Source: Euglena gracilis
Taxonomy: Eukaryota
Assembly: GCA_039621445.1 (NCBI GenBank)
Contig: CP154954.1
Location: 46,541,847 to 46,605,846, forward strand
Direction of reading: 5' to 3'
DNA: 64,000 bases
Within the stretch, counting starts at the first letter, position 1. Each line of letters begins with the position of its first letter. The translations under genes and the position numbers were made by a program. Of this stretch, positions 33,685 to 59,400 are shown in pieces. Below the pieces are notes generated by a model that was not told the DNA's origin, searched no databases, and saw nothing but the letters and a program-made list of their open reading frames with translations.

Positions 33685-33697
33685 ACCGCGACCTGTG
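32211..33697 (+). CDS. Tyrosine recombinase
   Basis: LALHRGVD (Arg I), KG, HSTRGAG (HxxR), LGQW, FQAHY (catalytic Tyr). Confidence 0.9.
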
Positions 33698-33828
33698 NNN
33701 NNNNNNNNNNACCCGTTAACCCGTGGACTGGCTGGCCTTTTGAGACTGAGGAGGAGCGTCAACAGTATGAATATGCTGTGACGATCCAACGACAAATCGC
33801 ACGTCGCCCCCCTGTTTCCGCTGGCCAG

Positions 33829-34671
33829 TGTCGGCCGCCGGCTTTCGCCGGCAGCCAAAAATTGCCAGAAAGCGCAAATTTCAAAGTCGCGGGTAACAGC
33901 CAACCAGTTAAAAAAACCCGCGACTTAAATTGGAAGCGGGTCAAATTAGTTTGCGCTTTCGAATTCTGTTTTTTCACAGAACTTGAGGGGTTTTCCCCAA
34001 TATTTGGCAAGAAGGAATACTATTGTATTGAATTTGTCAATTGGACTTTGATTTGGAGTGGCAAGTTGAATTTCATTGTTGGTCATTGATCTATTGAAGT
34101 CATTGTCTTGAAGGAGCCTTTAACACCACCACCCACTCCTCTATACCACCGCCTTCGCCTCCATCACCTACCACTCCTTGCCCCAAGGTTTGCACATTTC
34201 ATACATTCACATTCCACAGTTTCAGTTTCAAGTGTCTTCTCATTCAAGTTTTGGAGTTTCAGAATTCAAGTTTCTTTCAGATTTGACTTCAAAGTTCCAA
34301 GGTTCAGTGGGTTGGTTTTTGCCAACAAGGTGTGCGAGAGAGAGAGAGAGGAGAAAAGTGAGATTTGAGAGAGAAAAGTTCGATTTCATTTCAAATGGCA
34401 GATTTTTCGTTTTTCACTAAAATTTCGGAAAACTTTGAAAAAACGATCCTACGCGCCGGCTGGGGTTGGGGAAATCACCTGGGTGAAAAAATGGGGGTTG
34501 GCTTGAGCCCACCAATTCCCCGAGAAAGCGCAGGCCCCACCCCGGAAACACCCACCCCCCTGCTGTCGGTGGTTATCCACGACGGCGAGGACCCCCCCGG
34601 GCCCTCGGCCCACCGGGACTCGCCGGTCGCGGGGGCGACCGGCGGCGCACAGGGGGTGGGGCCGGCGAACA
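33829..34671 (+). repeat. 5' LTR
   Basis: Virtually identical to 45284-46126 (one substitution noticed). Confidence 0.95.
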
Positions 34672-37600
34672 TGGTTAGCAGAGGTCGGCTCACTGACTTC
34701 GTCAGTGAGATTGTTTCAGATTCGGTGAACGTCGTTGCAGAGATTTGTTCCGCTGCCTCTGCCAGCAGAATCAGTGCAAAGTTTTCAGATTCGGCTGAAA
34801 TCACAAGCAAAGGTTGTTTCACTGGCCCAGTCAGTGAAAATTTTTCAGAGACGGTCGACACGGTCACAGAGATTTGTTCTGGTGGCTGTGCCAGCAGAAT
34901 GGTACACGAGGTCAATTTCATCAACCCTGTGGTCTGTGAATTTTCAGAAGAATCTGCAGAAATCTGCTCGTTTCCCAGTCAATCTGTCCGAATTTCAGAT
35001 TGTGATGAAAATTTTCTGAGATCTTTGGCAGAAAGCTGCATTCAGAACGAAACGGAAGCTGAATTTTCTGCAGCCCAGTTTTCAGAACCTGTGGCATCAT
35101 TGCAAATCATGATGGAATCTGTGGCAGAAAACAATTTTCAGGCTGCAGAAACTTTATCGGCTTCAGGATTTTCAGAAACGACACAGGAATCAGAATCTGA
35201 TTCTGATTCGGGGAGGGGGTCATTTACATGCATTAGGCCCATCACGGTGGTAGGGCCAGAAAATTTACAACTGGTTCCACTGCATGGCAGTGACGACGAA
35301 TCAGACCCCCCAGGTTGTGAAAGCGAATCGGAGGAAGAAAAACAGGCTGAAAACGCAATTATTCAGCAAATGGTTATGCAAAGAATGAAAGCTGCTGGCA
35401 TGTGGCCAGTAAATTTTTCAGGTTTTCAGCAAATTTCTGTGCCGTCACGAGACAGCAGCCCAGGGCCAGAACAAAAAATGTTGTGTTTAACAGCCCAGCC
35501 AGAACCATTACTGTTAACTCAGAGTTCAGAACCGTTGTCAGCACAGCCTGCTGCAGCCCAGCTGCAGGTTTTTCAGCCAGCCCAGCAGTTTTCAGCTGGG
35601 TCATCTGTTCAGCAATCATGGGGCCAGCCCAGATGACTGCACAGGGTATTCAGCCGGGCCAGCAGTTTTCGGCTGGGTCTGTTCCAGCAATCATGGGGCC
35701 AGCCCAGATGACTTCACAGGTTTTTCAGCCAGCCCAGCAGTTTTCGGCTGGGTCATCCGTTCCAGCAATCATGGGGCCAGCCCAGATGACTTCACAGGTT
35801 TTTCAGCCAGCCCAGCAGTTTTCGGCTGGGTCATCTGTTTCAGCAATCATGGGGCCAGCCCAGATGACTTCACAGGTTTTTCAGCCAGCCCAGCAGTTTT
35901 CGGCTGAGTCATCCGTTCCAGCAATCATGGGACCAGCCCAGATGCATGGGCAGGTTTTTCAGCCAGCGTTAACAGTGTCTTCAAACACAGGCCCAGCCCA
36001 GATTTTTCAGCCAATTCAGCCAGATTTTCCACAGACCCAGCCACAGAATTTACAGCCAAACACCAGTTTTTCTGCAGAAACTGGGTCCGAAAACCCTGAA
36101 AATCAACATGATGTGGAAATGGAATCGGGCTATGGTCAATCCGATGATGATTGGAACAATTGGGGTGAAGAAATCAGTTGCAAAATTGAATGTTTACATG
36201 GCAGACTTTTGGTGCAGGAAGGAAAAAATCCTGAAAAAACGGCTGAAAATCTGGTGGGGGAGGCAGAAAACAGGCTAAATCAGGCATTGGCCATGTCACA
36301 GGGGCAGACATTGAATCTGGTCAATGAGGCATTGGGCATGCATGATGGGCGAATGGCTGATCACATTGCCATGGTGAAACGTGAAATTCAGGCTGAACTG
36401 AGTGCAACTGTAAACGACTTGCTTTTGCAGTTTCAGCAAAATGGTGAAATGGTGCAAAATCTGGCCCAATGCCAACGGCATTTGTTGAGTGTGGAAATGG
36501 AACGGCAGTTTGCTGAAAAAGTTAAGAAAGTGCAGGGTGGAATAACCTCGTTTTTTGAGGCCCAGGTTGAGGAATTGAGAAAAAATGAGAGGTACATTTC
36601 TCAGAAGCTGTCGTTTTTGGAAAAATCTGTGGGGGAGATGCACGTGGTGGTGCAACAAGTGGGGGAGAAGGAAAAACAGCAGGAAATTGCTGTTAATCAG
36701 GTCAAATCTGCAGTCGGTGAGCTAAGCTCTGGTCTGGAGGGACGCTTTGGGATCATTTTTCAGCAATGCAAAGGTTTGGGGGAGACTGAGTGTGCCAAAT
36801 TTCAGGCACAGGCTGAGAAATTGAAGGAATTTTCACAGTCCCTGGAGCGAGAGAGCAAATTTAATTTTAAGCTTTAAAGCTCTGAATGATCGTTTGGGGA
36901 GGTTGGAGAATTTTCTGGGTCGGAAAGATTTTCCCATTGAGAAAGTCTGTGACCTGATTAACAAGAGTGAGGAAACAATTCGGTTGGAGGTGCAAAGGGA
37001 GTTGGGGCTGCAAACGAGAAAGAATTTGGAGGTCATTATCAGTGAAATGTTGCAGGAAAGGTTGAGGCTGAGTGAAAGGGAGGGGCAGTTTGAGAAAGTT
37101 CGGGCTGAAATGGAAAATTCGATGAAACAGCAGGTTGGAGTTTTACTGCAACAGCAGTCCAGTGAACTTTTTAAAGAACAGCAGGAGCGGAAAAAAATTG
37201 CAACAAAAGCTGGATTTATTTCAGGCTGAGTTTTTGGTGATGAAAAATCAGCAAGCTGAATCTGCCAAATCTGCGACAGTGGATCTGACAAAGGAAACGA
37301 GAGAAAAATCAGCTGGAAACCCAGAAATCGAAGAGTTTGATCTTTTTGGTTACAACGATTTACCTGTGATCGAGAAAAATCCGGTTGAAATTGAAGGCTA
37401 TGAATACGCTGAACCAGGATCACATGCGACACATGTCAGGCAGGTTTGTGCACGACCTGTGGGGGCAGTGCCTGCAGGTGCAGGGCTGGTTTCATCAAAT
37501 GCAGTGGCAACGCATCAATTGATGAAAAACCTGGTAGCTCCAAATTTTTCTGGACAGCCAAAAGACTGGTCGTCCTTTGTGCGGGATTGGGATCAATATT

Positions 37601-39011
37601 TCAGGACGTTGGTTATTTTGCAAAATGGACATATGTCTGATTCACTCAAGCTTCAGCTTTTTGCAATGACGCTGGACGACACAAATCAAAAGGAATTGCA
37701 ATTCCGACTGGAATTGAACGGAAAAACATCTTTCGAGGAGGAATTTGACAGGCTTGAAGGGAAATATGCTGGAACTCAATCCGAGTGTGCCAGAAAAAAA
37801 TGGTATGATGTGAACCTCGTGAACCAAGGGAAAATTACCGTACAGGAATGGCGAGATTTTGTCATAAATTTCAGAATAGCCTGGAGACAGGTGAAAAGCG
37901 CCACTGACGATGAGGCAGAAAGACTGGTCAAGGGAAAACTGCCAAATTTCATTTTGCATTGGGTCGCCGATGAGGAGGAAAGGAAATCAACGTGTGGACC
38001 GAAAGTCAAAATGTACCCTGGAGTGCCTGCAACCGAGGAAAACATTATTTGTGCTGTGGAACGTGTCACTGGGGAAAAGCCCTGCAAGGTTTCGAAAGTT
38101 TCACCGCTGGAGTTCGAAGTCTTTTTGCCCAACACTACGATTTGCGACAAACTGAAAGAGGTCAGTGGGAAACCAATCACAGGCACGGATAAAAGGATCA
38201 AAATTGTGGAGGAACAGCCAAAAATGGGAGTTGAAGAAATTTTCCGTTTTGTTGAGCGAAAATTGTCATCCAGGGATTCTCAAGACATGATACACAGTTC
38301 CAGGGAGCCAAATGCATTTGGAAACCGGAGGGCCAGGTCTGCTAAGGCAGATCGGGCCAAGGGGTCCAGGACACCCTCCCCAACACGGTCAGCAAAGGGG
38401 GGCGAAACGGTGGCAAAACCGTCCGTTGGAAAATCAGATTCACAGGTGGCAGCTCCTGCGACCAATGCAAACGTGAACCCCCCCGTGCAAAATCCAGTGC
38501 CAGTGGTTCGATCACAGTCATTGCCACCCCCCCAGCAATCTCAATTTGGCAATGGGGGGGGATGGAGAAATGATTCTGGGTGGAATTCCAATGCCAATGC
38601 CAATTTTCAGGGAAATCAGTGGTGGCACTCAAATCAACAGAATTTTGATTCACAGTCTGGTGGTGGCAAAGGCAAAGGCAAAGGCAAGGGAAAAGGGAAA
38701 CAATTCTTGGGGGAAAGGAAACAATGGAAATGACTGGTCTAGGGGAAAGGGCCAGGATGGTGGAAAAGGCAAAGGAAAAGGAAGGGGGAAAGGAAACCGT
38801 TGCTAGGACAGCCGGGGTGGACCGTTGGGGGCGGGAGCCGCCCCGGGCTCGCATACCCAGCCCCACACAAAGACATACGCAAATCCCAGGTGGCAAGAAA
38901 ATTCTCATGCGAGTGAAACCACGATGAAAAATCTGCCACCCCAGGAGAGCTCTACACAAGGTGTGTCCAGTGTGTCGGGTGCGTGTGCGTGACGTGCAAA
39001 TCGGTGACTAG
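34393..39011 (+). CDS. Long Gag-like region (several frameshifts) with 78-bp tandem repeats, coiled coil and capsid-like domain
   Basis: Chained ORFs 34365-35636, 35402-36877, 36894-37229 and 37135-38733; APNFSGQPKDWSSFVRDW is a gag-type motif; G/K-rich C-terminus. Confidence 0.65.
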
Positions 39012-42000
39012 GCCCAAATCTGTAAAAAAACAGACCTCATAAGAGGTCGTGCACAGCCTTCCGTAAAGAAAAGAGCTTTAGACCTTTTTTGCGGTAAAGG
39101 CTCGGTTGGGGATTGCCTGAGAGAGCAGGGGTTTAAGGTTGTGTCAGTGGACATAAACCCCAGATTTAACCCAACCCACTGTGCAAATATTTTGGAGTGG
39201 AGATATTGGAGGTACCCCCCCGGATATTTTCAGATCATCGCTGCGGGGGTGCCCTGTACAGAATATAGCTTGGCCAAAACATTGGGAGTCAGAAATTTGG
39301 AGGGGGCAGATCGGCTGGTCAAAAAAACTTTGGAGATTGTCGAATATTTCAAACCAAAGTTGTGGTGGATTGAAAATCCCCGTCATGGACTTTTGCGGAA
39401 AAGACCCTGTGTTCAAAATCTGACTTTTGTCGATGTTGAATATTGTCAGTTTTCAGATTGGGGATATCAAAAGCCCACCCGAATCTGGGGGAGCGAAAAT
39501 CTGAGCAAGCTACAAAACAAACTTTGTGATGGCCAGACCTGCCCGAATTTGATTCCTGGGGGGAGGAGTCACCGAGAAAAGTTGGGAGGATATGGAATGA
39601 CAGTTGGTACTCAGAAAAAATGGAGGATGCCCAAACAACTGGTGGAGTATTTGTTAACCGTGTTGGAACGAAAAAGCGGATATCGTAGGGAGGATTATGC
39701 TGTTAGGAAAGTTTGTATGGAGGAAATTGAGAAGGAATTTCGGGTTAAGGCGGAACGGGATTGTTTTGCAACCAGCCAAAATGCCAGGTGTGAAAAGTTT
39801 TACGGGGAGGATGATGATGCCATGAAAAAGGATTGGGGGGCGGAGGAAACGTTGTGGATGAACCCCCCCTGGACTTTGTGGCCTGAGGTGGCTGAAAAAT
39901 TGCAAAATTCCAATTGTCGGGGAATTTGTATTTGCCCAGACTGGAATAGGAGGTGGGTGAAAAATCTGGTGGCTATGGCTGTCAAAAAGATTTATTTTCC
40001 CAAGGGGACAAAGTTGTTTGAGGCTGATGGGAGGATTTTGAGGGGTACCCGTTGGGGGGTGTGGGCCTTGTTGATCGATAGAAGGCAACCCTCCCAGGGG
40101 GGGGCAGCCCCAGGGAAGAAAAAATTGGTGCGGCTGAAAAAAAGAATGTTGAGGGGGACGAAAACTCGGGGAGGAGCAAAGAAACTCGGGGAGGACAGAC
40201 AACTACTGGTGAAAACCCAGATTAGGTTGGCAAATGGGGAGGAAAAAACGGCCAGAATTTTGATTGACACGGGGGCGGAGGCAAACCTCATTCGACAAGG
40301 GTTGATAGGGGACCACCTAATGTATCCTGCTAAGGACCCGTTAAGGTTTGAAACTGCCAATGGGCAAACTTTGGCGGGGGGGAGCAGATGTGCAAGGGTG
40401 AAAATGATCCTACAACAAAATTGGAATGAGGAAAGGGAAATTGAGTGTGTGGAATATGAGGTTGAATTTTATGAGGCAAACATCAAAGTTGATGCAATTC
40501 TTTCTTATCCATGGTTGGCAGAAGCAAAACTGGGAATTTTTCCACACCACAAGGCGTTGGTGAAAGACAGCCCCGACCTGATTTTTTTGCGGGGTGTTGA
40601 AAGACGGAGGGGTCCGCAAAAATTCAGGGATGACACAAATTTTTCAGTGGACAATGTGACTGTGGCGGACGGGTCTGAGTTTCGGTTGCAAAAACTTGGT
40701 CTTTGTTTGCCATTGGAGGGGTTGGACCAGGAATTACAATTTTTGAGTGATGAGGACCTAGGGGAGGTTGCCACAAATTTGGAGGGAAGTGACCCCCCAG
40801 TGCAAGTTATCAACCGAATGATAATTGCAAGGGAGGGGGAGGACAAAAAAGAGGAGGAACGGGTAGTCAAGTTGAGGGAACAAGTTTTGGAAGATTACAG
40901 GGGGACGGTATTTCGGTCATCGCCATTTCCAGACCCCCCCGAAAGAGGACAATATGGTTATGCATACATACCGTTGAAGGAGGGGGCAAAGCCAACCAGA
41001 CAGAAGCCTTTTTTCATGCACGGTGAGCGGAAAGAGGCACTTGAAAAAATCACACAAGACTGGCTCGACAAAAAATACATTGAGCCAGCCACAGCCAAAA
41101 ATTCAGAATGGCTGTCCCAGACTTTTCCAGTTCCAAAAAAATCCAACGATTTTCCTTGGAGGGGGGTGGTGGACCTCAGGGGCCCAAACAGCCAAACAAG
41201 GCGATGCAACTACCCCCTACCCAAAATTGAAGACATTTTGGTCAAACATGGTGCAAACCAAATGTTTTCGATCATCGATTTGAAGCAAGCTTTTCACCAA
41301 CAACCTTTACACCCAGAAAGTCGACCCATAACGTGTTGTTTTACCCCCAAAGGCATTTTTCAGTGGAGGGTGAACGTAATGGGTTTGACAAATGCCCCCC
41401 AGCAATTTCAGCAAATGATCGATGACCGTTTGACACCAGTAAGGGATATCGCCACAGGGTACATAGACGACATACTGGTGGGGACAACGGTCGGGGAAGG
41501 GGAGGATCTGGTGGGGGCACATGAAAAAGATTTGAGGAGGGTGTTGGAGGTGCTGAAAACAGAACTTTTGGTGGCTGATGAATTCAAAGCCAAACTTTTT
41601 GTGGAGGAGGTTGAATTTTGTGGACAAATTTTAGGAAACGGGACTAGGAGGCCTGCACCGGGTAAGTTACGAGCGATCGAAAAGTGGGAGGTTCCAAAAA
41701 CAATTACGGCTTTGAGAGCCTTTTTGGGATTCACAAATTATTACAATGCATACATTCACATGTATGCGGAAGTAGCTGCCCGATTGCAAGACAAATTGAA
41801 AGTCCCCAGGGAGGTGGGAAAGAAAGGAAGTCGAAAACCTGTGGAATTTGATGGGGAGGATTTAAAAGCTTTTGAGGAGCTGAAAAAAAGGTTGTGTTCG
41901 GGCCTAATGTTGCAACGGGTAGACCCAGATAAACCCTTTGTGCTAAGGGTTGATGCCAGTGGGTACGCCGTGGGGGCAACGTTAGAGCAAATGAAGGAGG

Positions 42001-44273
42001 GGGGAGGAAGACCCACAGCCCAGGATGTGATTGAGAAAAAAACTGTGCCAGTGGCTTTTATGTCTCGAAAATTGACCGAGGGGCAAAGAAAATGGACCCC
42101 CAGGGAGTTGGAGACGTATGCCATAATTTTGGCACTACAAAAATGGGAGAGTTGGATTGGATTGCAACCCGTTTTGGTTTTAACCGACCACCAAAGTTTG
42201 GAGTCTTGGACAAGGGAGGTCCTAGACACCCCCAGTGGTCCGGTTGGGAGGAGGGCGAGATGGCATCAAATTTTCTCCAAGTATGATTTGACGGTGGGAT
42301 ATATCCCGGGTAAAGAAAATACCATAGCCGATATCCTTAGTCGGTGGGCATACCCAGCTTCACAGGCCCTAAGGGACATAAGTAAGCACGGGTCAGCCGA
42401 AGACAAGGATGAAATGGAAAATTTTATCCGGGAGGAAAAAGAAGAGGAAAAACAGTGTTTGGAGATAAGAATCAAAAACCAGCCCAATTTACGTAATGCC
42501 TGGATACGGGGGGTGACAACCCGTAGTGGCAAAAACGTAACACCCGAGGAGGAAAAAGGAGAGTGCACAAGGAGGGGAACCGAGGGTGGGGTAGACCCAG
42601 GAGGAAAAGACACCCCTGTGGACACCCACTCACAAGGGCCCAGGAAAGAAAAGAAACGAGTTCATTTTTGGGATGAGAAAGTGGGGGGGGAGACGACCCC
42701 TGTCCCGGAGACGGCTGAAAGTTCGAGGGGGGACACTCGTATGGAAGTGGGGGACGCCCTGCCAAGTACGACCCCTAAGGATATTAAGCCCGTATGGGAG
42801 CGTGATTGGGGGGAAGCATATTCCCAATGCCCCACATGGAAAGAAAAATGGGTAGCTACCAAAGGCGATTCAATTTGGCCAAAGGGTTTCAAAGTGCTAA
42901 ATGGCCAATTGTTTTTCGAGGAAAAGTTGTGTGTGCCTGAAAGTTTTCAACACTTGGTGATTCAAGAAATTCACGAGTTTTTGGGGCACGTTGGCCCTGA
43001 AAAAGTTTGGAAACACATGGCAATCCGTTTTGTTTGGGCTGATGAAAAGGCTGCAAAACAACTCAACCAAAGTTGCAGCAAAAATTGTTCCACATGCCAA
43101 GCGAGTGTGAGGGGGGAGAGTTTGAAAGGACCGATCGAGTCCACACCCATACCCCCTGCACTAATGACAAGTGTTGCCATCGATTTGTTTCGAATGCCAA
43201 GGGTTTTACACGATGGGGGGGAGTACGACACCCTAGCCCTTTGTGTGGATAGGCATTCGGGTTGGATTGTGGGGGTTGCATGCAAGGACAAGGGATTAAC
43301 CGGTGCCAAGTTGGCTAAGGAAATGGTGAAAAATCAGTGGAGGCCTTTTGGGGTTCCCTCGGTCATCTCAAGTGACCAAGGGAGCCATTTCACAAGCACT
43401 TGGTGGAAAAACATGTGTGCACTTTTGGGGATTAGGCAAGCGTATTCCCAAGCATACCACCACCAAGCAAACGGGAGGGTTGAGAGAGCCGGACAACAGG
43501 TAATGGAGGTGTTGAGAAAATTGTACGTGGAGGAAAAAATTAATTGGGTTGAAGCTTTACCCCAAGTTTTGGACCGAATTCACGACGTAAAGGGGGAAAG
43601 CGGGTTCAGCCCATATGAAATTGTGACTGGAAGGGAAAGACCATTGGCAGGGGTACCCTACCAACCACCCAAGGAATGTGAGGATTCGGTGGAGTTTTTC
43701 CGAAGGATGCGAGACATTGATGGGAGGGTGGCTAGGATACTCAACAAAAAGCACGAGGAGGAGGTGGCAAGGATAAATAAGGGGAGGAAAGAAATGGAAC
43801 CCCTAAAGGTGGGGACGACGGTTTGGTATAGGAGACCCGAGGGGTCGGGTGAGAAGCTTGACTCTAGGTGGGTGGGACCTGGGGTCGTGAAGGGTAGAGA
43901 AGGGGAACGGAGTTATGTAATTGAGATGAAATCTGGGGTGGAGACGAAAGCTCATAGGAGTTTTTTGAAGAAGTATCGGGAACCCCAAGTTGAAGGTAAG
44001 GGGGTGCCTCTTTTTTATTATAAACGGACCGAAAAAGAAGAAGAGGCATTACCTGATGAGTGGGAGGTGGAAAAAATTCTAAGGCACCGAAAAGGAAAAG
44101 ATGGAAAATGGGAATTTTTGACCAAGTGGGTCGGATATGAGGACGGGGAGGAGACCTGGGAACCGTCTGGGAATTTTATTCACAGATTCAGTGAAGAGTT
44201 TGTGAAATATTGTCGTGAGAAAAAAGTGAAAGTGGACGTAATGTCCGAACTAAAAATTGACGGTGGGCCGTAG
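39012..44273 (+). CDS. Pol polyprotein: C5-MTase - amino-MTase - protease - RT - RNase H - integrase - chromodomain
   Basis: Frame is open from 39012; DLFCGKG, GVPC, ENP; DCFA..NPPW; LIDTGA; YIDD; VDASG..RELE; SDQGSHF..GRVER; WEVEKIL..KWVGY..TWEP. Confidence 0.95.
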   Translation, partial: AQICKKTDLIRGRAQPSVKKRALDLFCGKGSVGDCLREQGFKVVSVDINPRFNPTHCANILEWRYWRYPPGYFQIIAAGVPCTEYSLAKTLGVRNLEGADRLVKKTLEIVEYFKPKLWWIENPRHGLLRKRPCVQNLTFVDVEYCQFSDWGYQKPTRIWGSENLSKLQNKLCDGQTCPNLIPGGRSHREKLGGYGMTVGTQKKWRMPKQLVEYLLTVLERKSGYRREDYAVRKVCMEEIEKEFRVKAERDCFATSQNARCEKFYGEDDDAMKKDWGAEETLWMNPPWTLWPEVAEKLQNSNCRGICICPDWNRRWVKNLVAMAVKKIYFPKGTKLFEADGRILRGTRWGVWALLIDRRQPSQGGAAPGKKKLVRLKKRMLRGTKTRGGAKKLGEDRQLLVKTQIRLANGEEKTARILIDTGAEANLIRQGLIGDHLMYPAKDPLRFETANGQTLAGGSRCARVKMILQQNWNEEREIECVEYEVEFYEANIKVDAILSYPWLAEAKLGIFPHHKALVKDSPDLIFLRGVERRRGPQKFRDDTNFSVDNVTVADGSEFRLQKLGLCLPLEGLDQELQFLSDEDLGEVATNLEGSDPPVQVINRMIIAREGEDKKEEERVVKLREQVLEDYRGTVFRSSPFPDPPERGQYGYAYIPLKEGAKPTRQKPFFMHGERKEALEKITQDWLDKKYIEPATAKNSEWLSQTFPVPKKSNDFPWRGVVDLRGPNSQTRRCNYPLPKIEDILVKHGANQMFSIIDLKQAFHQQPLHPESRPITCCFTPKGIFQWRVNVMGLTNAPQQFQQMIDDRLTPVRDIATGYIDDILVGTTVGEGEDLVGAHEKDLRRVLEVLKTELLVADEFKAKLFVEEVEFCGQILGNGTRRPAPGKLRAIEKWEVPKTITALRAFLGFTNYYNAYIHMYAEVAARLQDKLKVPREVGKKGSRKPVEFDGEDLKAFEELKKRLCSGLMLQRVDPDKPFVLRVDASGYAVGATLEQMKEGGGRPTAQDVIEKKTVPVAFMSRKLTEGQRKWTPRELETYAIILALQKWESWIGLQPVLVLTDHQSLESWTREVLDTPSGPVGRRARWHQIFSKYDLTVGYIPGKENTIADILSRWAYPASQALRDISKHGSAEDKDEMENFIREEKEEEKQCLEIRIKNQPNLRNAWIRGVTTRSGKNVTPEEEKGECTRRGTEGGVDPGGKDTPVDTHSQGPRKEKKRVHFWDEKVGGETTPVPETAESSRGDTRMEVGDALPSTTPKDIKPVWERDWGEAYSQCPTWKEKWVATKGDSIWPKGFKVLNGQLFFEEKLCVPESFQHLVIQEIHEFLGHVGPEKVWKHMAIRFVWADEKAAKQLNQSCSKNCSTCQASVRGESLKGPIESTPIPPALMTSVAIDLFRMPRVLHDGGEYDTLALCVDRHSGWIVGVACKDKGLTGAKLAKEMVKNQWRPFGVPSVISSDQGSHFTSTWWKNMCALLGIRQAYSQAYHHQANGRVERAGQQVMEVLRKLYVEEKINWVEALPQVLDRIHDVKGESGFSPYEIVTGRERPLAGVPYQPPKECEDSVEFFRRMRDIDGRVARILNKKHEEEVARINKGRKEMEPLKVGTTVWYRRPEGSGEKLDSRWVGPGVVKGREGERSYVIEMKSGVETKAHRSFLKKYREPQVEGKGVPLFYYKRTEKEEEALPDEWEVEKILRHRKGKDGKWEFLTKWVGYEDGEETWEPSGNFIHRFSEEFVKYCREKKVKVDVMSELKIDGGP

Positions 44274-44689
44274 GCTCTAAGGGGAGCCATGAGGCCCTGT
44301 CCAAGGCTCTACGGTGAGCCCAATGGGAAGGCAAAGTGCTGTTTTTAACCCAACACCAAAATTCAAAAACCCGATTTGCACGTCTGTGTGGGTGTGAGTG
44401 CACGCACACACGCATGAGCGTGTAAAGGAGAGAATGTACAAATGCAAGGATTTGCAAGGAGAATGGAGAAAGGTAAAAAAAAGGCCCCGCAAGGGGGCCG
44501 GGGCACCACAGTATATTCGCTGCACGTTCACTATATTGCCGTCCGCTGTCGCCCTTCCCTCCCTCTACCTTACCCCGCTGCCCTTACACCTTACCCCACA
44601 TTGCCGTCACGTCCCATATGGTGGTGTTGTAAGGAGTCCTTTTATTATGATGTGGTTGGGAGTCCTTGAGCCCCCCTTTCGGTTTGACA

Positions 44690-45062
44690 AATATCCCCCC
44701 GGCCCGAGGAGGGGGGGGGGGCGCTTGATTTTTTAAAAAATCCCCCCGGCCCGAAGAGAGAGGGGGGGGGGGGGCGTTTAAAAATCCCCCCGGCCCGAGG
44801 AGGGGGGGGGGCGCTCGATTTTTTTTGACAAATATCCCCCCGGCCCGAGGAGGGGGGGGGGGCGCTTGAATTTTGGACAAGAATCCCCCCGGCCCGAGGA
44901 GGGGGGGGGGGGGCTTGACGAATTTAAACCAAAAATCCCCCCGACCCGAGGGGGGGGGGCGCCAACCGAATTTTTACCAAAAATCCCCCGACCCGTTGGA
45001 AAGGGGGGGGGCAAATCTTCGTGAAGACCCTCATACCACCCGTGAGAAACGGGGGGGGGGGC
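44690..45062 (+). repeat. ~55-60-bp tandem repeats in the 3' UTR (aaatccccccggcccgaggagggggggg)
   Basis: Six to seven degenerate C-run/G-run units. Confidence 0.75.
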
Positions 45063-45283
45063 AGCCAAATATTCATTGGTTGGTGAACCGAGTCTTTCCC
45101 AAAGGCTTGAAGGCACTTGAAAGCCAAAGTCCCTGAATTTTATTTCCCGTTTGGTTGGTTCAAGGGAGCATGTGTGGGACATAGGCTTTGGGTGAGGAGT
45201 GCCGATTGGAGGAGTTCCCCCCTCTTTGTTGAGGGGGGGGGGGGGGAGTTTTTGGTGTCCGACTAAGGTCGCAAGGGAGGGGG

Positions 45284-46126
45284 TGTCGGCCGCCGGCTTT
45301 CGCCGGCAGCCAAAAATTGCCAGAAAGCGCAAATTTCAAAGTCGCGGGTAACATCCAACCAGTTAAAAAAACCCGCGACTTAAATTGGAAGCGGGTCAAA
45401 TTAGTTTGCGCTTTCGAATTCTGTTTTTTCACAGAACTTGAGGGGTTTTCCCCAATATTTGGCAAGAAGGAATACTATTGTATTGAATTTGTCAATTGGA
45501 CTTTGATTTGGAGTGGCAAGTTGAATTTCATTGTTGGTCATTGATCTATTGAAGTCATTGTCTTGAAGGAGCCTTTAACACCACCACCCACTCCTCTATA
45601 CCACCGCCTTCGCCTCCATCACCTACCACTCCTTGCCCCAAGGTTTGCACATTTCATACATTCACATTCCACAGTTTCAGTTTCAAGTGTCTTCTCATTC
45701 AAGTTTTGGAGTTTCAGAATTCAAGTTTCTTTCAGATTTGACTTCAAAGTTCCAAGGTTCAGTGGGTTGGTTTTTGCCAACAAGGTGTGCGAGAGAGAGA
45801 GAGAGGAGAAAAGTGAGATTTGAGAGAGAAAAGTTCGATTTCATTTCAAATGGCAGATTTTTCGTTTTTCACTAAAATTTCGGAAAACTTTGAAAAAACG
45901 ATCCTACGCGCCGGCTGGGGTTGGGGAAATCACCTGGGTGAAAAAATGGGGGTTGGCTTGAGCCCACCAATTCCCCGAGAAAGCGCAGGCCCCACCCCGG
46001 AAACACCCACCCCCCTGCTGTCGGTGGTTATCCACGACGGCGAGGACCCCCCCGGGCCCTCGGCCCACCGGGACTCGCCGGTCGCGGGGGCGACCGGCGG
46101 CGCACAGGGGGTGGGGCCGGCGAACA
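45284..46126 (+). repeat. 3' LTR
   Basis: Preceded by the PPT and followed by CCAG. Confidence 0.95.
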
Positions 46127-46349
46127 CCAGGGATACCCTGCCCGGGCGGAAATGACACGGGAAGAGCGGCAGCAGTATGATGCTGCTGTGTCGGCTCTCA
46201 CAGGAGTCCCAGCTTCATCACGATCGAGTCAACCAGCGTGACAGCAGGACGTTGCTGTGGCGGAAGCGCCTCCAGCACGGCCCACAAGCTCTGCCGCCGG
46301 CAAGCGTGACCGCGGCCCGGAAAATCTGACGCCGCAGCCACAGCACCGC

Positions 46350-46779
46350 TGTGTACCAGGCACGTCCCAGCTCTGTAGGATATCTGCAGAGTGGGTTCTG
46401 TGACGGTCGCACCACTGTGGAAACCCACAGCTGGTAAGATCGTGGCAGACCCTTCTGGGATCTGCCCCTGGACACGTCAGCACTTTTCTCTCCTTCCCCC
46501 ACAGGTGGTATTCTTTACTCTCACAATCTCCAAGTTTTCACCATTGGTTTTTGCAGAGGGAAAAACCCTCAGAACAATCGAACTTTGATCTCAGAAGAAA
46601 CTTCTGAATCTTTGCTTTGTGCTTTGCTTCTTGGGGAATTGGGAAGAAAAGGGGAAAACCACTTTTCGTTACTCCAAAGACTTTTCCCTACCATAAGTAG
46701 GCTGCGCACCAAGGCGAAAGCGAAAGGCTTTTACAGAAAGTTCCAAAAAGGGGAAAAGGGAAAGCTTTGGACGTACACT
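46350..46779 (+). repeat. 5' LTR
   Basis: Homologous to 62757-63183 with multiple substitutions. Confidence 0.9.
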
Positions 46780-47065
46780 TGGTAGCAGAATAGGTCAAAG
46801 ATCCTACAGAAAGAAAGGCTACCAGGTAATACACTTGGTAGCAGATTTAGGCAACGAACCTACACAGACGTTCCACACAGAGAAACTCTGTGGTTGACTG
46901 GTGGTGAGGATCGTACTGAGCCGTGAAACACGGTGAAAGTACTGTTCCTGGCCCCTAGCCAACCTTTAAGCAAGGATACAGGTCTCAGAAGGCTCTGTTC
47001 GGTAATCGCCGATACAACCTTTCTGGTCCCTGTTTCTCTGCTTATTTGTGTGAATTTTTGGGTTT

Positions 47066-50000
47066 TTGCCTTTTTACCCATCTCAAAAGATGCAGAGCAC
47101 AAGCCCCAACCCCAAATTTGATTATGACTTGTTGATGAGTTCATTGAGCAATTGTGATGAAGATTGCGGGGATTGGAACGGTTTGAATGAAACAAGTTCC
47201 AATTCCCGACCCCCCAAGCAAGAAGAAGGCAATTTGACTCATTTGTCATTGTCAAAAGGCGAAACGCCTTCATTATTGCATGGGGGTAATGAACCCTCTT
47301 CATCATCATTGTCATTGATTGTGCGGGATGTAGGTGGCAAAATGCCTTCCTCCATCCCGATTCACCCATCATTGATGCGGCGAGGGGATGAACCCCTTGA
47401 GATCTCACATTTGCTTACTCATGTTACCCATGAACAAAGTGAGGGGTATTTGCCCTTTGCTCTGTTCACACCCAAAAGATCCCCGGTGGAAGCACCGGTG
47501 GGCCTTTTGGAGTGCAACTCGGTGGAAACACCGTGTTTTTTCCAACCCCCCCCTCAATTACCACCCCCCACACCATTTCACGCTTTGCCGGGATTACCCG
47601 CGGAAGCTGCGGTTTTCCCTGCATTGCCATGGAACCCAGATATGCGTCTGGTGGTGCCGGAAATCTCTGGTGCCGTTTCCATTGTGGAGGACTATGAGGA
47701 AGATTTGAGGGATAACCTCACCCCCGGTGATGTTTACCGAATTCTCGGTCAACTCCCAGCGGATCACCCGCTTAGCAAGCAAATTTTGCATGTCCACCAA
47801 TGCGTTGCGGAATGCGCAACCATGCTCAACAAAGTTTTGCAGTTCGATGAGGACAATCAAAGGGTTGTCAACACCAAACTGGAATGTTGCTGGAATTATT
47901 TGCAGGAAATCGGCAAATATTGCCAACACAATTTTGAAAATGCGGGGAAAGACCTTCAGCATTTTCGAGAAAGTGTTGACAGTATTTTGCGCATCCAACT
48001 TCCACAAAATTTCCAACAAATCAGCGAAATGCTGCATGAAGCGGAAACGCGGAATGATTCCAAGTTTCTGCATGTGCAGGATGGTATGAGCCATCTTTTT
48101 GCCCAATTGGAATCCTGTTCAACCATGTTACTGCAATTGCAGCAGCAGTTACAAGCGCAAAATGCCACCCCCAAAATGCCGGAAATCGGTAACTTTGTCG
48201 CGGTTGAGCATTTTGCCGCACTTACCACTTCTTTCCAAGAAGCCCAACAACGGATTTTGCATCTTGGCTCGGAAATCGAGCACTTGAAGCAATTTCAGGC
48301 GAAAGTGCAAGAAAATTTTGTTCCCCGTACGCAAATCCAGCTTTTGGAGGAACGAATTTCACACTTGGAGCAAAAATCCTGCCATTGTGCCGCAAATCAG
48401 GATGGATTAACCACCTTGAACGCGAAAATCGCGGATTGCGCACAACGGTTGGATTTTACGCAACAACAAATGCAAACGGACATTGGCGGTATTAATGCCA
48501 CCGTTGTCGGTTTGCAGGAGCATGTTTCTGCACTTTCCAAGCGAATTCCCGACATTAGTGGTATTCAAGCCGCTATTGGGGAATTACAAACCCGTTGCAC
48601 CTTGTTGTCCACCACAGTGACGGAAATCCGCTCACTACCCCCCATTTCGCGTGCTCGGATATCCGAGTCACCGGAATTTCGCTCATTTTATGACAAAGTG
48701 CTTGGTGACAACAAGGAAACCTTGCAAGCATTTTGTACAAGTTTGCTCCAAATTGAGGAAAGCGTGAATCGGAATGCCCGATCCATGCAAGATGAGGTTT
48801 CTCGGTTGGATGGACGAATTTCTGCTTGTTTGAAAAACCAAACACAGAAAATTCGCGAACCACCATGGAAACCCCCACCAAATCACACCACAATTTGCAA
48901 ACCGTCTCCAATGCGGTGAAAGCGCTTGCGGGTCAACTCCGGAATGTGGAGGAGTCCCAAGGAAATCTTGCCCAAGAATTATACTTGGTTTCTGAAAAGA
49001 TGCCACACTTGGAAGATTTTTCCCGTTACCGCAAACGCATTAGGCATTTGGAGACTGAGGTTGTCCGTATTTGCGGCCAACTCCAGTTGGTGGAACATTT
49101 GGAAGAAACGGTGCATGACTTGTCCGCGAGTTTGGATAAAATGTCCACTCCGGTATCGGTTGTGCCACCATCCACCGCGGTAAGCGCTGCGGTTGGTATT
49201 CCAAATGTCCGGGAATCGCGTTCTCAAATTACCATTTCCGGAGTAGGAATCCCTACATCCACCGCGAATTTGGTACAACCACCCGCGAAAACGCGAATTG
49301 TACCACCTTTGCATTTGCCAACACCACAAACTCACTCTTCGCACGACATTTCCGATGAGGAAATTGACCCCCCACTCGAAAATTCGAGTCTCCACCAAGA
49401 AATTCAACATTCCAACCTTGTACGAGGAATGAGCCAACACCCCACACCTGGTATTGGTCATGTGTCGCATTCGCGATCATACCAACCACCAACGGGTTCT
49501 GGATTACCGAATCACCCATCGGGTTTTCGGCGGGAAACCCGCCCCACTGAGAGGATTTCACCACATTTTTCGCAATTAAATCCTGCCAACCTTACACTTG
49601 GTGCGGGAAATCCTGCACGGGTTACACATGGAGCGGAAAATCCGCGAAACGCGTTTGGTGTTAAGAATTACCCTGACCCAAACCCCTGGAATACCACCGA
49701 GGGTCAGCGGGTTACTCAGAGAGACTTCAAGGGCACCATCGCAATCGCGAACAAGGTGAAGCCCCAATGGGACGGGGATCCAACCACATGGAGACAATTT
49801 TTTCGGGACTGGGAGTACTATTGGGCACTAAAGGGACCCACCCAAGACCCGAATCCCGAGGTAGTCAAGATGGAATTCATCGATTGCCTACCGAGGGAGG
49901 AGCGAGAACGCGCACGCAATTTGGTGATACGTAATGGCGTATCATTCGATGACCTGGTTGAGCAATACGCTTCAACCAACTCAAGTTTGGTCACCAGGAT

Positions 50001-51158
50001 TACCCTGGAGAAGAAGTGGCGACAAAGCGCGCCATCGGATCGCAAATGGAAATCCATTGACCTTTGGTATGCCAAATGGTTAGCACTTGCTTCCGAAGTT
50101 GATGAACTTAGCGAGAAGCAAATGCGCGAACAATTCGATGCGGTTTTGTTGCATTTCACACCATCCCTCGTGAAGGATATCCATCGCGAGGAGTTGGCAG
50201 GGCATGAGATGACTCTTGCCCAACGTTGGAATTATGTGTCAAAGCAACTCAAGCTCACACAAGTTTTGGGACAAATACAGTCCGCTTTCCAAACGCATCC
50301 CACCGCGGGAATCCCTGCGGGTGCGGTTAATGCATTGCAAAAATCACCCATGTCACCAAGATCACCCACCACGGGACCGAAAACGCGGAATCAGCGTTCT
50401 TCGGACCAGGGCACGGATAAACTGTGCTTTTTGTGCAACAAATCTGGTCACATGTCTCGGGAATGCCCGAATCCCGATGCGCGAAAGCGTATTGGAAGCC
50501 CAAGGGGCTCGACCTCCTCACGGGGATCGGGTTCCTCGGCGTTTTCACGTCAATCGGGATTTTCACGTTCTTCGGAGAACCGCTTTAGCGGTAGTAGGCC
50601 CAAGTCACCATCGCGTGATGGTCGGGAAACCCGTCCTTCTCGCGGTCGGTCACCTGGACCCCCTGCCCGAAAACGGGATTTCAATCGCGATTCTTCACGA
50701 TCTCGTTCGCGAAGTGAATCATCCTCTACGCGGGAGTCACCGAAGAAACCCAAGTCCACCGGTCATGGTCGACGGGAAACCCGTTCACCACGACGGTTTG
50801 ACGGTCGAACGGAATACCGTTCCCCCCGTTATGCGGAATCCCGCCACAAATCCCGTTGTTCACTTTGCGGTTCCAAAGATCACCACGCATCCAAATGTCC
50901 CAGATCTCGTTTTCCCCCCGGCCCGGCTACGGAAATCGCGGTAAGCGCCGCGATGACCGTGGTTACTCCTCCAACCGGCAAAAGGTCGGTTTCAAGATAT
51001 CTTGTTTGGAGGAGGACACCCCGGCTTCGGGCAGGGAGGGGGATGAGACCTCGGACGGGGAATTTAATGAGGCCCGAATGGCGGTGCGCTCATTAAATTC
51101 CATCTATTCCACCAAAAAGTCCGTTGCCGGCTATGCGGCCGGTTCGGACTTGGAGTAG
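47066..51158 (+). CDS. Gag (coiled-coil N-terminus, capsid-like domain, two CCHC zinc knuckles; two frameshifts)
   Basis: PQWDGDPTTWRQFFRDW; CFLCNKSGHMSREC; CSLCGSKDHHASKC; shifts near 48840 and 50915; ends at TAG 51156-51158. Confidence 0.85.
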
Positions 51159-51203
51159 GGGAGCCCGAGGTCCGAGGGCACGGACCTCTGGGCTGATGAA
51201 CAG

Positions 51204-56427: not shown

Positions 56428-59400
56428 ATGCTGCCCGGTGGAAGGGATTCAGGCGGAGGACCGCCTTACCACCCCACCACTCACCCTCAACCTGACCAGT
56501 ATGCGTACCGATACGGTACGCAGCCACCTGCACGGACTGCGGCTCAGGGAAACCCTGAAGCCAGCAGCAGTAGCAGGATGACCCAGATGCCCGCGGAAGC
56601 GCGGCCATCTCAGCCATCAGGCTCTCGTCGCCTCCCACCGTATGCGGGTGTGATGATCCACCGCACGGCGGAGACGATGAACCGGGTTATGCGTATGAGC
56701 GCAAACCCGGCACCAGACCAACTCACACAGGCATTGTGGGATGACCACTGCCGTAAAGCTTTGACCATCGCGAATACCCCTCCAGCCCTGTGGTGTGTGT
56801 GCGCCCAGGCGACGATGACCGGTCTGGTGTATTACACCGACCCGGACGCGTCGGGATTCGCGGCAGACATTACCATGCGTGACCTGGGCGTGGAAGACCC
56901 GCCACAGGTCGCAAGGCAGGTACCACCCGTTGGCACTTACACTGCACATTTTCGTGCTCACTCCCCCGGATTACCCGAGGAAGAGACAGTGGAAGCACCT
57001 GTCCGGAGTGAACACCCACGTGTGAAAGAAAGTATTTTTCGATCCCCTGAGCGCATGCCCCGGCGGGATTATCCTGCGCAGGAGCATGTGTCTCAGTACA
57101 CCGTCTCTGGGGATTATCCCCAGGAGGCGCCAAGGCCACAGGATCAGTACATATATCCACCTCAACCCCACCCCACTATTCCTGACCCTATCCCACGACG
57201 TCCTGCGGCGGGAAATCCTCCCCCGACGTCTGACTCTGCCCGAAGCGCTCGTCCGCGGCGGCGCCTCGTGCAGCACCAGTTCCCGCGGCACGGGATGAAC
57301 CCGTTAACCCGTGGACTGGTCGGCCGTTCGAGACTGAGGAGGACCGTCAACAGTATGAATATGCTGTGACGATCCAACGACAAATCGCACGTCGCCCCCC
57401 TGTTTCCGCTGGCCAGGGATACCCTGCCCGGGCGGAAATGACACGGGAAGAGCGCCAGCAGTATGATGCTGCTGTGTCGGCTCTCACAGGAGTCCCAGCT
57501 CCATCACGGTTAAGTCAACCAGCGCGACAGCGGGACGTGGCTGTGGCGGAAGCGCCACCAGCACGACCCACAAGCTCTGCCGCCGGCAAACGTGACCGCG
57601 GCCCGGAAAATCTGACGCCGCAGCCACAACGCCGCTCGCCGAGGTCGGAAAATCCCCCCGCGGCGATGCACGTCGACGCTGAGGAGGAAGCTCCGCCAGC
57701 GCCCGATGTGACGGCAGAACGGGCACGTCGGGAAACCCGACCATCCCCAGTCGCACCGGTTTACTCGAATCGTGGTGATGCTGAGCAGGAATTTGCTCGA
57801 ACACCAAGCACGGAATCCGTGACTTATCCTGTGTATACAGAAGAAGACCCAGAATACTGGGAATATTGGGACCCATATCGGGCGACGATAGAATGGCTGT
57901 CCAACACGAAGGGCAAGGGTAAAGGAAAAGGCAAGGGTAAGGGTAAAGGTAAAGGCCAGGAGAAAGGTGGGAAAGCCCCATCTGGGAAAGGCGGAAAACC
58001 CGCTGGACCATCTCCAGGCAAAGGCGGAAAATCTGCCGGACCCCCAGCAGGAAAAGGCGGAAAAGCCGCCGAGCCTTCGAAAACGAAGGATTACGACGTT
58101 AACCAGGTGTTCGACTACCTGGATGAGATCTGGCCGAAAATTGAAGAAAATCTTCAGCAGTACACGCGTGCAGGTAACGTCATCCACCGACCACCGGAAG
58201 CGGTGCTCGAAGTGGTACAGGATCGTACGTACGATCACTGCAAGCGATTTTTCTACAGTTCTGAACTTCATGCATTTGAGGGATACCCTCATTCGAATGA
58301 AGTCGTCCTGGACCGGATGCCCGGTTTCTGGGAGCTGTGGTTCTGGTTGGGATACCCCTGCCAGAACTTCGGCATCTTTACTGACCGAAACGGTCAGTCG
58401 TACGTGAACTGTTTGGGAACATGTCCTGACGATGAAACGTTCGTCGCACAGTTGAAGGAAATCTTCAACCACATGTATTCCGTCAGCGCACTGGGAATCC
58501 AGTGGAAGTATTACCCCCTGCCGGAGAAACTCCAGGTGCAGGCTGCGGTAATGTTCACGAACAACCTCCAAGTATTCTTGGATAGCATGTATGGCATGCT
58601 GTTCAAGGTACTGGACGTGGACCTCGCCTATCCTCAGCGATACAAGCTGGAATGCCAGTTTTGCAAAGAGCAACACATTGTTGATTTCTGGGGTTTCGGT
58701 GAGCGTGGAAAACCGCCTCCGACTGCCGAGAATGCCGGCAGCCCACTGACCAGGAGATTTCTCCTGCATCAGTGCCGAAAGCCCCAGATCGGAACGCAAG
58801 ATCGAAAGGTGCTGAAACAGCACCGGCAGAAAATATTTCTGCTTCAACAATACTGGCACAGGGCGTGGATTACCTACGTCCTGGAGGTGTACATTTATTT
58901 CCTGGAGTACATGACCACTGATGTGAATATTCACAGGAAGTGGTTACCTCGGGGATACACCGAGGAAGAAGCCAGACCGAATGACCAAGACCGACGCAGG
59001 ATGAACCTGCGGCCGGACTGGTACGAGGCCGAAATCGGTCTTCCGAAGCACATGGAAAACCAGTTCGGGAATATCCTGATCTGGGAAGATTTCCAGTCCT
59101 TCTACGCAGCAGACGTGGAAAAACAGCCACGTTATGCCTTGCCGCTGCCAGCCTTCCTGGAAGACACAGGAGAACGTGGCATGAGCTGGGATCGGCGAAT
59201 GCAGTGGGAAGACCTCTGCCGTAACAACGAGGACGAGCCAGAGCCCTTACCCGGAAGCTGGGTAAGACCGTCATGGCCACCCCCATATCCCAACTCTGAC
59301 AGGAGCGAAAGTATTAGCTTTTTCCGCCTGTCAGACGCACAGGGGTGCTATAGAACCGGGGAAGACCCGCGTTCTGCAGCACAGCTACACACAGAGGACT

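Follow-up and report, generated by a model that had tools for sequence, protein, structure and literature searches.

Cytosine DNA methyltransferases (DNMTs) encoded within retrotransposons were reported by de Mendoza et al. (2018; PMC5890265), who, in the portion of that study considered here, place them in LINE and DIRS elements of dinoflagellates and in a gypsy element of Klebsormidium, and who also note Dam-like domains in DIRS elements. The closest described systems are those of a bioRxiv preprint of 22 May 2026 (10.64898/2026.05.21.726589), the main text of which describes long terminal repeat (LTR) elements carrying Dam, and introduces the name 'EpiLTRs' for those that combine DAM, DNMT and a chromodomain. 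EpiLTRs are described there from Euglena gracilis and, assembled independently, from Cymbomonas tetramitiformis, and the combination is called previously undescribed. Their DNMTs are placed as sister to DNMT4, and eukaryotic DAMs are said to retain an Asn-Pro-Pro pocket. In E. gracilis, 5-methylcytosine (5mC) at CG sites is near-default, and LTR elements with DAM are more often methylated at N6-adenine (6mA) than other LTR elements (10.64898/2026.05.21.726589). Here, an element of this kind is described from a 64,000-nucleotide stretch of the E. gracilis genome, hereafter the window (GenBank assembly GCA_039621445.1, contig CP154954.1, positions 46,541,847 to 46,605,846 of the forward strand), in which coordinates are counted from the first letter. 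It is an intact Ty3/gypsy chromovirus with two LTRs that spans 33829-46126 on the plus strand, and its Pol polyprotein comprises, in order, a C5-cytosine methyltransferase (MTase), a Dam-like N6-adenine MTase, protease (PR), reverse transcriptase (RT), RNase H (RH), integrase (IN) and chromodomain.

With DAM, DNMT and chromodomain in one LTR element, the window element is a member of the EpiLTRs, and the design of C5 and Dam modules with a chromodomain is already known in E. gracilis through the preprint. A sequence-only reading of the window had supposed that a C5 and adenine MTase tandem was unreported in a chromodomain gypsy polyprotein or in euglenids, a claim that the preprint overturns; literature searches returned no report of the tandem besides it. 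The window therefore adds no new class, and what it contributes is offered as leads rather than discoveries: a miniature DNMT with phage-sized relatives, at least four module orders, a structural likeness to PCIF1, the manner of entry into Pol, and three Dam-bearing elements clustered together. The main text of the preprint, figures and supplements aside, does not mention PCIF1, frameshifting or zinc and speaks of 'target recognition' for Dam only; nor were the near-absence of a DNMT target-recognition domain, a full-length likeness to phage proteins of ~220 aa, or the lack of a Pol ATG found in it.

The C5-cytosine methyltransferase module

The first module of Pol contains several of the sequence motifs by which C5 methyltransferases are recognized, including motifs I, IV and VI. 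Motif I, the SAM-binding F-x-G-x-G, is LDLFCGKG at 39078-39101 (with F26 and G28), motif IV is GVPCTEYS at 39246-39269 (with the catalytic P81-C82), and motif VI, E-N-V in the family, is WIENP at 39366-39380, in which the E of E121-N-P123 is encoded at 39372; KPTRIW (K154-P-T156-R) follows at 39471-39488. When the first 223 residues are scanned alone, the PF00145 (DNA_methylase) profile that the sequence-only reading had expected is recovered over Pol residues 22-153 at E 1.5e-5 and 25.1 bits, against a cut-off of 22; in a scan of the whole Pol the score is 20.0 bits against the same cut-off, and only profile positions 3-136 of 324 are covered. Two PHROG families of DNA methyltransferases are also matched (phrog_363, E 4.7e-13; phrog_757, E 3e-11), as is the NCBIfam dcm family at E 7e-5, far under its curated cut-off, and a sequence search of the PDB gives weak matches only, the best being DIM2 (E 0.018, 17.6 bits).

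An AlphaFold2 model of residues 14-223, built on a 33-sequence alignment, has a pLDDT of 93.8, and its top Foldseek matches in the PDB are C5 MTases alone (DIM2, DNMT3A/B, DNMT1 and M.HhaI; E ~1e-8, probability 1.00). In VIA, 198 residues of the model align with DNMT3A 628-908, and 194 of the 327 residues of M.HhaI are aligned, within 11-326, both at Z 15.3. As modelled, the module retains the SAM-binding and catalytic motifs and corresponds to M.HhaI and DNMT3A from motif I through to their C-terminal helix. Only ~47 residues separate YQKPTRIW from that helix, in the interval between motifs VIII and IX where a target-recognition domain stands in other C5 enzymes. The C5 module is a phage-type mini-MTase of ~200 aa almost without a target-recognition domain.

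Across the 33 aligned sequences, which are 41-61% identical to the window, the invariant positions are F13, G15, P68, C69, E108, P110, K141-P-T143, C132, C159, C164 and H174 in domain numbering, to which 13 is added to obtain Pol numbering. In a subset of relatives the N of motif VI is replaced by T (ETP), with E and P invariant. The four remaining invariant residues form a Cys/His cluster (C145/C172/C177/H187 in Pol), of which C172, C177 and H187 fall within the ~47-residue stretch, and this Cys/Cys/Cys/His arrangement is suspected to be a zinc site.

The Dam-like adenine methyltransferase module

The second module carries DCFA at 39759-39770 (D250-x-F252-A253), NPPW at 39861-39872 (N284-P-P-W287), which is a (D/N)PP(Y/F/W) catalytic motif, and ICPDW at 39930-39944. 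The Dam profile PF05869, likewise anticipated by the sequence-only reading, matches Pol residues 236-288 at E 2.7e-11 and 43.9 bits when the part is scanned alone, against a cut-off of 28.1, and at 39.5 bits in the whole Pol. The phage DNA-methyltransferase family phrog_111 is matched at E 1e-11. Searched against phages, the Dam part recovers 625 records, the majority from T1-like phages of Klebsiella and Escherichia; all 15 of these matches that were listed are annotated as DNA (adenine) methyltransferase. A sequence search of the PDB with the Dam part returned no matches.

An AlphaFold2 model of residues 224-373 has a pLDDT of 89.8. It was built on a collinear set of 12 sequences, as relatives with other domain orders aligned badly. 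The best structural match of this model is PCIF1, an RNA cap adenosine N6-methyltransferase (Foldseek E 1.4e-4; VIA Z 10.9 over 127 residues), behind which lies a plateau of Rossmann MTases at Z 8-9, with T4 Dam (8.6) and the Dam of E. coli (8.5) among them. The likeness of the module to an RNA adenosine MTase is at least as great as its likeness to Dam, which provides a testable lead. In the 12 sequences, N61-P62-P63, F29, W52 and W59 (domain numbering) are invariant, and NPP is kept in at least 90% of rows in a wider local alignment of 22 rows. In overall form this is a minimal Rossmann amino-MTase whose NPP(W/F/Y) motif is invariant.

The sequence-only reading had described a single uninterrupted frame with two domains before the protease, and this is borne out by 1753 open codons and by the Pfam order, with LDLFCGKG, GVPCTEYS, WIENP, KPTRIW, DCFA, NPPW and ICPDW all at or within a few bases of where it had put them. 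MTase folds, which it proposed to check by structure prediction, were obtained for both modules, and the catalytic motifs it called intact are indeed so, with SAM-binding and catalytic residues conserved across the 33 C5 and 12 Dam relatives.

Module shuffling and phage-sized homologs

Relatives were sought with Pol residues 1-375 among proteins of 964-3068 aa, which gave 34 matches from 1655 candidates, and their module arrangements were read by blastp. The C5 and Dam modules stand in tandem, as in the window element, in seven of the 34; Dam lies upstream of C5 in another seven; and in four the C5 module is near the N-terminus with Dam hundreds of residues downstream. Only Dam is present in one, the transcript-derived P0011, which starts at M236, and only C5 in fifteen, a count that is an upper bound since many relatives are truncated gene calls on short contigs. 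The Dam match is weak in three cases (E 1e-6 to 1e-10). Pfam domain orders, checked in six relatives, include Dam-C5-RT-RH-IN-Chromo (P0008), C5-Dam-RT-RH-IN-Chromo (P0013) and C5-RT-RH-Dam (P0015). Judged from these predicted proteins, the two modules occur in at least four different orders. The relatives with shuffled modules are mostly from environmental contigs, a spread that hints at a range beyond the two reported host lineages. One related chromovirus Pol (P0018) contains, between its C5 and Dam modules, a SLBP_RNA_bind domain (the RNA-binding domain of the histone-mRNA stem-loop-binding protein; residues 553-623, E 6.4e-23).

When the C5 part was run with HMMER against 1.84 billion representatives, 3043 matches reached E <= 1e-3 and 237 of these reached E <= 1e-30. 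The top 150 include complete proteins of 200-221 aa that share 39-43% identity with the window, begin just before motif I and stop just after the last helix; one of this size class (P0211, in the cluster of P0145) bears the source name 'site-specific DNA-cytosine methylase', and the contigs that hold some of the compact homologs reach 45.7 kb in length. Annotated phages provide further examples: of 35 records matched by tblastn, 30 align over at least 80% of the 210-aa C5 query, at 27-30% identity. These include a free-standing 224-aa gene of Bacillus phage BCP8-2 annotated 'DNA methyltransferase' (L002, 592-1266) and a 218-aa gene of Inoviridae sp. MW202486.1 (L003, 592-1248), which lies beside a replication-associated protein in a circular single-stranded DNA (ssDNA) genome of 4.6 kb. 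The C5 module scores 55-84 bits against phage proteins and 17.6 against DIM2, the best-matching solved eukaryotic DNMT. By sequence comparison, the DNMT module is a compact phage-type C5 enzyme, much closer in bits to phage proteins than to any solved eukaryotic DNMT. A search of viral contigs with P0169 gave a single 26-residue match, between open reading frames (ORFs) of a giant-virus bin, that allows no interpretation, and an alignment-based search of viral and prokaryotic contigs found no sufficiently conserved stretch.

Transcription and selection

The family to which the element belongs is transcribed at a low level. A transcript-derived protein (eukprot:EG_transcript_113, the P0011 mentioned above) is 97.5% identical to Pol residues 236-1753, from the Dam domain through the chromodomain, in agreement with a euglenid host if the prefix EG is read as Euglena gracilis. 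Approximately 5-6% of each of four raw RNA-read runs with the same species label was sampled, and 313, 258, 299 and 53 reads, respectively, were placed on the element; the whole of Pol, the MTase part included, is covered. The Gly-Lys repeat region at the end of the gag-like ORF2 (38657-38907) attracts ~10 times more reads than the rest of the element, a peak that is assigned to other transcripts with similar repeats, since nearly all of these reads have loose ends running into other sequence.

Of 36 Pol variants listed from the reads (8 further differences lie on the covered stretch), 29 affect a third codon position, and synonymous changes outnumber the others 27 to 9. Within the MTase part, four of six listed variants are synonymous, one of these four being in the N of NPPW. 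The codon positions of the read variants, taken in place of a formal dN/dS, indicate that the family is probably under purifying selection.

Anatomy of the element and its insertion

The features of the element are collected in Table 1. The arrangement is that of a Ty3/gypsy chromovirus, with direct TG..CA LTRs, a target-site duplication, a primer-binding-site-like sequence and a polypurine tract adjacent to the LTRs, and the domain order PR-RT-RNase H-IN followed by a C-terminal chromodomain; anatomy and domain identity can be regarded as practically certain. Pfam matches are found for RVT_1 (Pol residues 708-873, E 8.6e-18), RT_RNaseH (949-1091, E 8.3e-24), Integrase_H2C2 (1308-1364, E 7.1e-7), rve (1407-1483, E 2.9e-10) and Chromo (1684-1727, E 2.2e-9, 37.6 bits against a cut-off of 25.1), and the protease region is 30.6% identical to that of the neighbouring chromovirus. 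In chromoviruses generally, the chromodomain guides integration. No significant Pfam family was found for ORF1 in the Pfam scan. ORF2 matches DUF1759 alone, at E 0.1, and weakly resembles the ORF with a CCHC knuckle in the neighbouring chromovirus (E 6e-5, with 21.6% identity across 153 aa). A tRNA scan of the window found no tRNA genes, and hence none to pair with the primer-binding-like site.

Table 1. Features of the chromovirus and its insertion site, in window coordinates.
Feature	Coordinates	Strand	Basis
Left target-site duplication copy, CCAG, 4 bp	33825..33828	+	sequence; single CCAG in uninterrupted paralog 57299-57636
5' LTR, 843 bp, TG...CA ends	33829..34671	+	blastn of window vs itself
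Primer-binding-site-like sequence, TGG start, abuts 5' LTR	34672..34689	+	sequence
ORF1, 508 aa, 78-bp tandem repeats at 35565-35967	35351..36877	+	open frame; repeats
ORF2, 535 aa, gag-like, C-terminal Gly-Lys repeat	37126..38733	+	open frame, weak similarity
Pol open frame, 1753 aa	39012..44273	+	uninterrupted codons
Candidate -1 frameshift site: heptamer A AAA AAA (39024-39030), 2-nt gap, 6-bp hairpin GACCUC/GAGGUC (39033-39048)	39024..39048	+	sequence, fold
Compact C5-cytosine DNA MTase domain, aa 20-215	39069..39656	+	Pfam PF00145, AlphaFold2 model, fold searches, invariant columns
Dam-like N6-adenine (amino) MTase domain, aa 225-366	39684..40109	+	Pfam PF05869, TIGR01712, phrog_111, AlphaFold2 model, fold searches
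Aspartic protease, DTGA at aa 419-422	40233..40559	+	weak Pfam matches (residues 408-465), motif
Reverse transcriptase (YIDD aa 817-820) and RNase H	41133..42284	+	Pfam
Integrase: H2C2 zinc domain and DDE core	42933..43460	+	Pfam
Chromodomain, C-terminal	44061..44192	+	Pfam Chromo
Polypurine tract AAGGGAGGGGG, abuts 3' LTR	45273..45283	+	sequence
3' LTR	45284..46126	+	blastn of window vs itself; sequence
Right target-site duplication copy, CCAG	46127..46130	+	sequence
'Empty site', uninterrupted paralog of insertion site	57299..57636	+	repeat matches within window

The two LTRs, already described as almost identical by the sequence-only reading, align over 844 bases with a single mismatch when the window is compared with itself by blastn (99.88% identity). 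The flanks of the element are contiguous in the paralog, where the left flank (33711-33828) corresponds to 57299-57416 at 95.8% identity and the right flank (46127-46350) to 57413-57636 at 94.2% identity, the two matches overlapping by the 4-bp CCAG; this fixes the boundaries of the element and identifies a true insertion with a 4-bp duplication. The near-identical LTRs, the target-site duplication and the empty-site paralog mark the element as a recent insertion, and its target was a repeat of another chromovirus.

Neighbouring elements

Directly upstream lies a DIRS-like element (29137-33627) with inverted terminal repeats of 103 bp (29137-29239 versus 33627-33525, 96%) and a tyrosine-recombinase ORF at 32166-33716 (Phage_integrase, E 4.6e-5). 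Its ORF at 30854-32275 contains a Dam-like domain with an intact NPPW (family hidden Markov model, E 7e-17) that is 26% identical to that of the window chromovirus. A 13-N assembly gap at 33697-33709, 120 bp before the 5' LTR, separates this element from the recipient repeat. Directly downstream, a second chromovirus (47054-56252) contains an ORF1, a CCHC-knuckle gag (48796-51093) and a Pol (51159-56252) whose Dam-like domain (aa 479-599) lies between protease and RT, with its catalytic motif decayed to HPPP and with no C5 module. The copy under study is a clean and complete reference: its ends are exact, its target-site duplication and empty site are both present, and two further Dam-bearing elements lie alongside. 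The CpG observed/expected ratio is 0.55 in the internal region of the EpiLTR, 0.98 in the neighbouring chromovirus and 0.18 in the DIRS-like element, values that are not used as evidence because there is one copy of each.

Repeats around the second chromovirus follow the order A-B ... A-C ... B-C, with no simple LTR pair. Repeat A is represented by 33711-33828 plus 46127-46350, equivalent to 57299-57636, and the element under study sits in the first A copy; repeat B is 46350-46777, equivalent to 62757-63181; and repeat C is 57632-58460, equivalent to 63185-64000. An open frame of 1542 aa at 57234-61859 overlaps the A and C repeats and has no Pfam family at E <= 0.001. Another retroelement in the window has an RT-bearing ORF at 17582-20688 (RVT_1, E 1.4e-11), behind which lies a pair of 600-bp direct repeats (20710-21306 and 28192-28791), 98.3% identical and 7.5 kb apart.

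Proposed function and alternative explanations

The preferred explanation, and a probable one, is that the element is an intact EpiLTR-type chromovirus with active MTases that mark its own complementary DNA (cDNA) or its fresh insertion. Catalysis by both MTase domains is a fairly likely prediction, and self-marking of the cDNA or of new insertions is a tentative one, rather less likely than not. Under this model, the C5 and Dam-like modules would be active SAM-dependent enzymes and, being part of Gag-Pol, would enter the virus-like particle alongside RT and integrase. Within the particle or the pre-integration complex they would place 5mC and 6mA on the reverse-transcription products of the element, or on the fresh insertion, while the chromodomain would direct integration via histone marks. 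The new copy would then resemble the host genome, in which CG methylation is near-default and 6mA is found at permissive promoters. Retrotransposons that carry writers of both DNA marks together with a reader of histone marks suggest that mobile elements can manipulate, and not merely suffer, the epigenetic control of their hosts, as the preprint has already argued (10.64898/2026.05.21.726589).

Several observations weigh against this model. The target-recognition domain is almost absent from the C5 module, in which ~130 residues of M.HhaI have no counterpart, and its binding and specificity for double-stranded DNA are therefore uncertain. For the Dam-like module, the PF05869 match is limited to profile positions 19-70 of 169, and TIGR01712 (phage_N6A_met, NCBIfam) is matched at E 8.3e-11 with 41.7 bits against a cut-off of 97.05, so that the module is a relative rather than an equivalog of the phage N6A MTase. 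According to the main text of the preprint, representative eukaryotic DAM proteins produced no rise in 6mA in dam-deficient E. coli, and LTR expression in E. gracilis is low or undetectable (10.64898/2026.05.21.726589). The RNA reads described above are in both orientations at a depth of ~1-3 only, and most are 95-99% alike to the element (285 of 313, 235 of 258, 264 of 299 and 44 of 53 in the four runs), which attributes them to sister copies. Lastly, the Pol frame has no ATG before residue 195, and hence none ahead of the MTase modules, and stops at 38731, 38740 and 38914 lie between the gag-like ORF2 and a short frame at 38917-39039. The inference of the sequence-only reading that the element was recently active accordingly stands for the recent insertion and falters for autonomy.

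Entry into Pol would need a frameshift or another non-standard route, which is itself a testable lead. The short frame at 38917-39039 overlaps the Pol frame by 28 nt, and a -1 shift at the candidate heptamer (z of -2.18 for the 93 nt folded at this site) would lead ribosomes into Pol, although their route to the short frame is unexplained. No splice joints were seen in the RNA reads at the gag-pol junction, where the depth is ~1, and a spliced route may exist. A longer ancestral Pol frame was also considered; the match between the N-terminus of P0002 and frame 2 at 38942-38977 (12 residues, E 0.58) is too weak to support it.

The modules could instead be true MTase folds from which methylation has been lost, serving as nucleic-acid- or SAM-binding parts of Gag-Pol for packaging or for tethering to methylated chromatin. 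The negative assays of eukaryotic DAM domains in dam-deficient E. coli (10.64898/2026.05.21.726589), the near-lack of a target-recognition domain in the C5 module and the Dam-like domain that the neighbouring chromovirus retains with its catalytic motif decayed to HPPP would all fit such a role. It is nevertheless considered unlikely: FxG, PC, ENP and NPP(W/F/Y) are invariant across relatives that are 40-60% identical, a constraint that pure binding would not demand, and the free-standing homologs of ~200-220 aa in phages and metagenomes are sole MTase genes.

Action in trans, in which the enzymes would methylate host chromatin or other elements, near insertions or genome-wide, in place of their own cDNA, is similarly improbable. 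An enzyme released from Pol by the protease could diffuse, and the preprint, in its main text, discusses recruitment of the host AMT1 and local chromatin effects (10.64898/2026.05.21.726589). Packaging of the polyprotein with its own template would favour action in cis; the sequence itself is neutral between the two.

A further proposal concerns the substrate of the Dam-like module, which might act on RNA or on an RNA:DNA hybrid and deposit m6A on the genomic RNA of the element or on its reverse-transcription intermediates. PCIF1 surpasses T4 and E. coli Dam as a structural match (Z 10.9 versus 8.5-8.6; Foldseek E 1.4e-4), and an RNA or hybrid substrate would agree with the negative result obtained on genomic DNA of E. 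coli and with the hybrid substrate suggested by the authors of the preprint (10.64898/2026.05.21.726589). Z scores of 8-11 among Rossmann MTases cannot, however, separate substrates, and sequence groups the Dam part with phage DNA adenine MTases (PF05869, TIGR01712, phrog_111 and the 625 phage records), which leaves the proposal quite improbable.

That the architecture is an artefact, whether an assembly chimera or an MTase gene nested in a gypsy element, can be dismissed as extremely improbable despite the nearby 13-N gap and the caution of the preprint about nesting and misassembly in the DAM elements of Euglena (10.64898/2026.05.21.726589), since one open frame runs through both modules and the rest of Pol, the LTRs, target-site duplication and empty site denote one insertion, the same C5-then-Dam tandem recurs within one protein in seven of 34 relatives, and a transcript-derived protein matches from the Dam domain through the chromodomain.

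A more novel reading, which is rather doubtful, is that the pair constitutes a portable 'pre-integration imprinting' unit, in which a phage-type mini C5 MTase lacking a target-recognition domain is coupled to a minimal N6A MTase and both act with little sequence specificity on single-stranded or RNA:DNA reverse-transcription intermediates within the particle. If true, this would explain both the failure of assays on the double-stranded genomic DNA of E. coli and the shuffling of the two domains as loose modules in at least four orders. Genes of small ssDNA phages are included among the compact C5 relatives.

Comparison with known systems

The small phage C5 MTases (BCP8-2, Inoviridae sp., phrog_757 and phrog_363) share the compact size and the motifs of the C5 module and align collinearly with 93-96% of its 210-aa sequence, with identities of 27-30%. 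They are free-standing genes, whereas the module of the window is fused into a eukaryotic retroelement polyprotein.

DIRS retrotransposons have the Dam-like domain family in common with the window element. They possess a tyrosine recombinase and inverted or split repeats, in contrast to the DDE integrase (rve, H2C2), direct LTRs and target-site duplication of the window element. Classification of the window element itself as DIRS was considered and rejected, as the tyrosine recombinase encoded at 32166-33716 is part of the DIRS-like neighbour.

In KnitGypsy-Dnmt3, SymbioDIRS-Dnmt3 and SymbioLINE-Dnmt, a C5 DNMT is likewise part of a retrotransposon polyprotein; its catalytic residues are conserved and it is under purifying selection. 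As described in the portion of the study considered here, these DNMTs are DNMT3-like or dinoflagellate-specific and come without an adenine MTase, whereas the window element pairs a compact phage-like C5 enzyme with a Dam-like one (PMC5890265).

The EpiLTRs of C. tetramitiformis are also chromoviruses with DAM and DNMT, and their DNMT falls in one clade with the Euglena DNMT. By the main text of the preprint, the Cymbomonas DNMT is located at the 3' end of pol, whereas both MTases of the window element are N-terminal, before the protease (10.64898/2026.05.21.726589). The EpiLTRs of E. gracilis are nearest of all, as they share with the window element the host, the combination of three epigenetic modules within an LTR element of Ty3/gypsy-like type, and the Asn-Pro-Pro pocket of the DAM part, with no essential difference in what the main text of the preprint describes.

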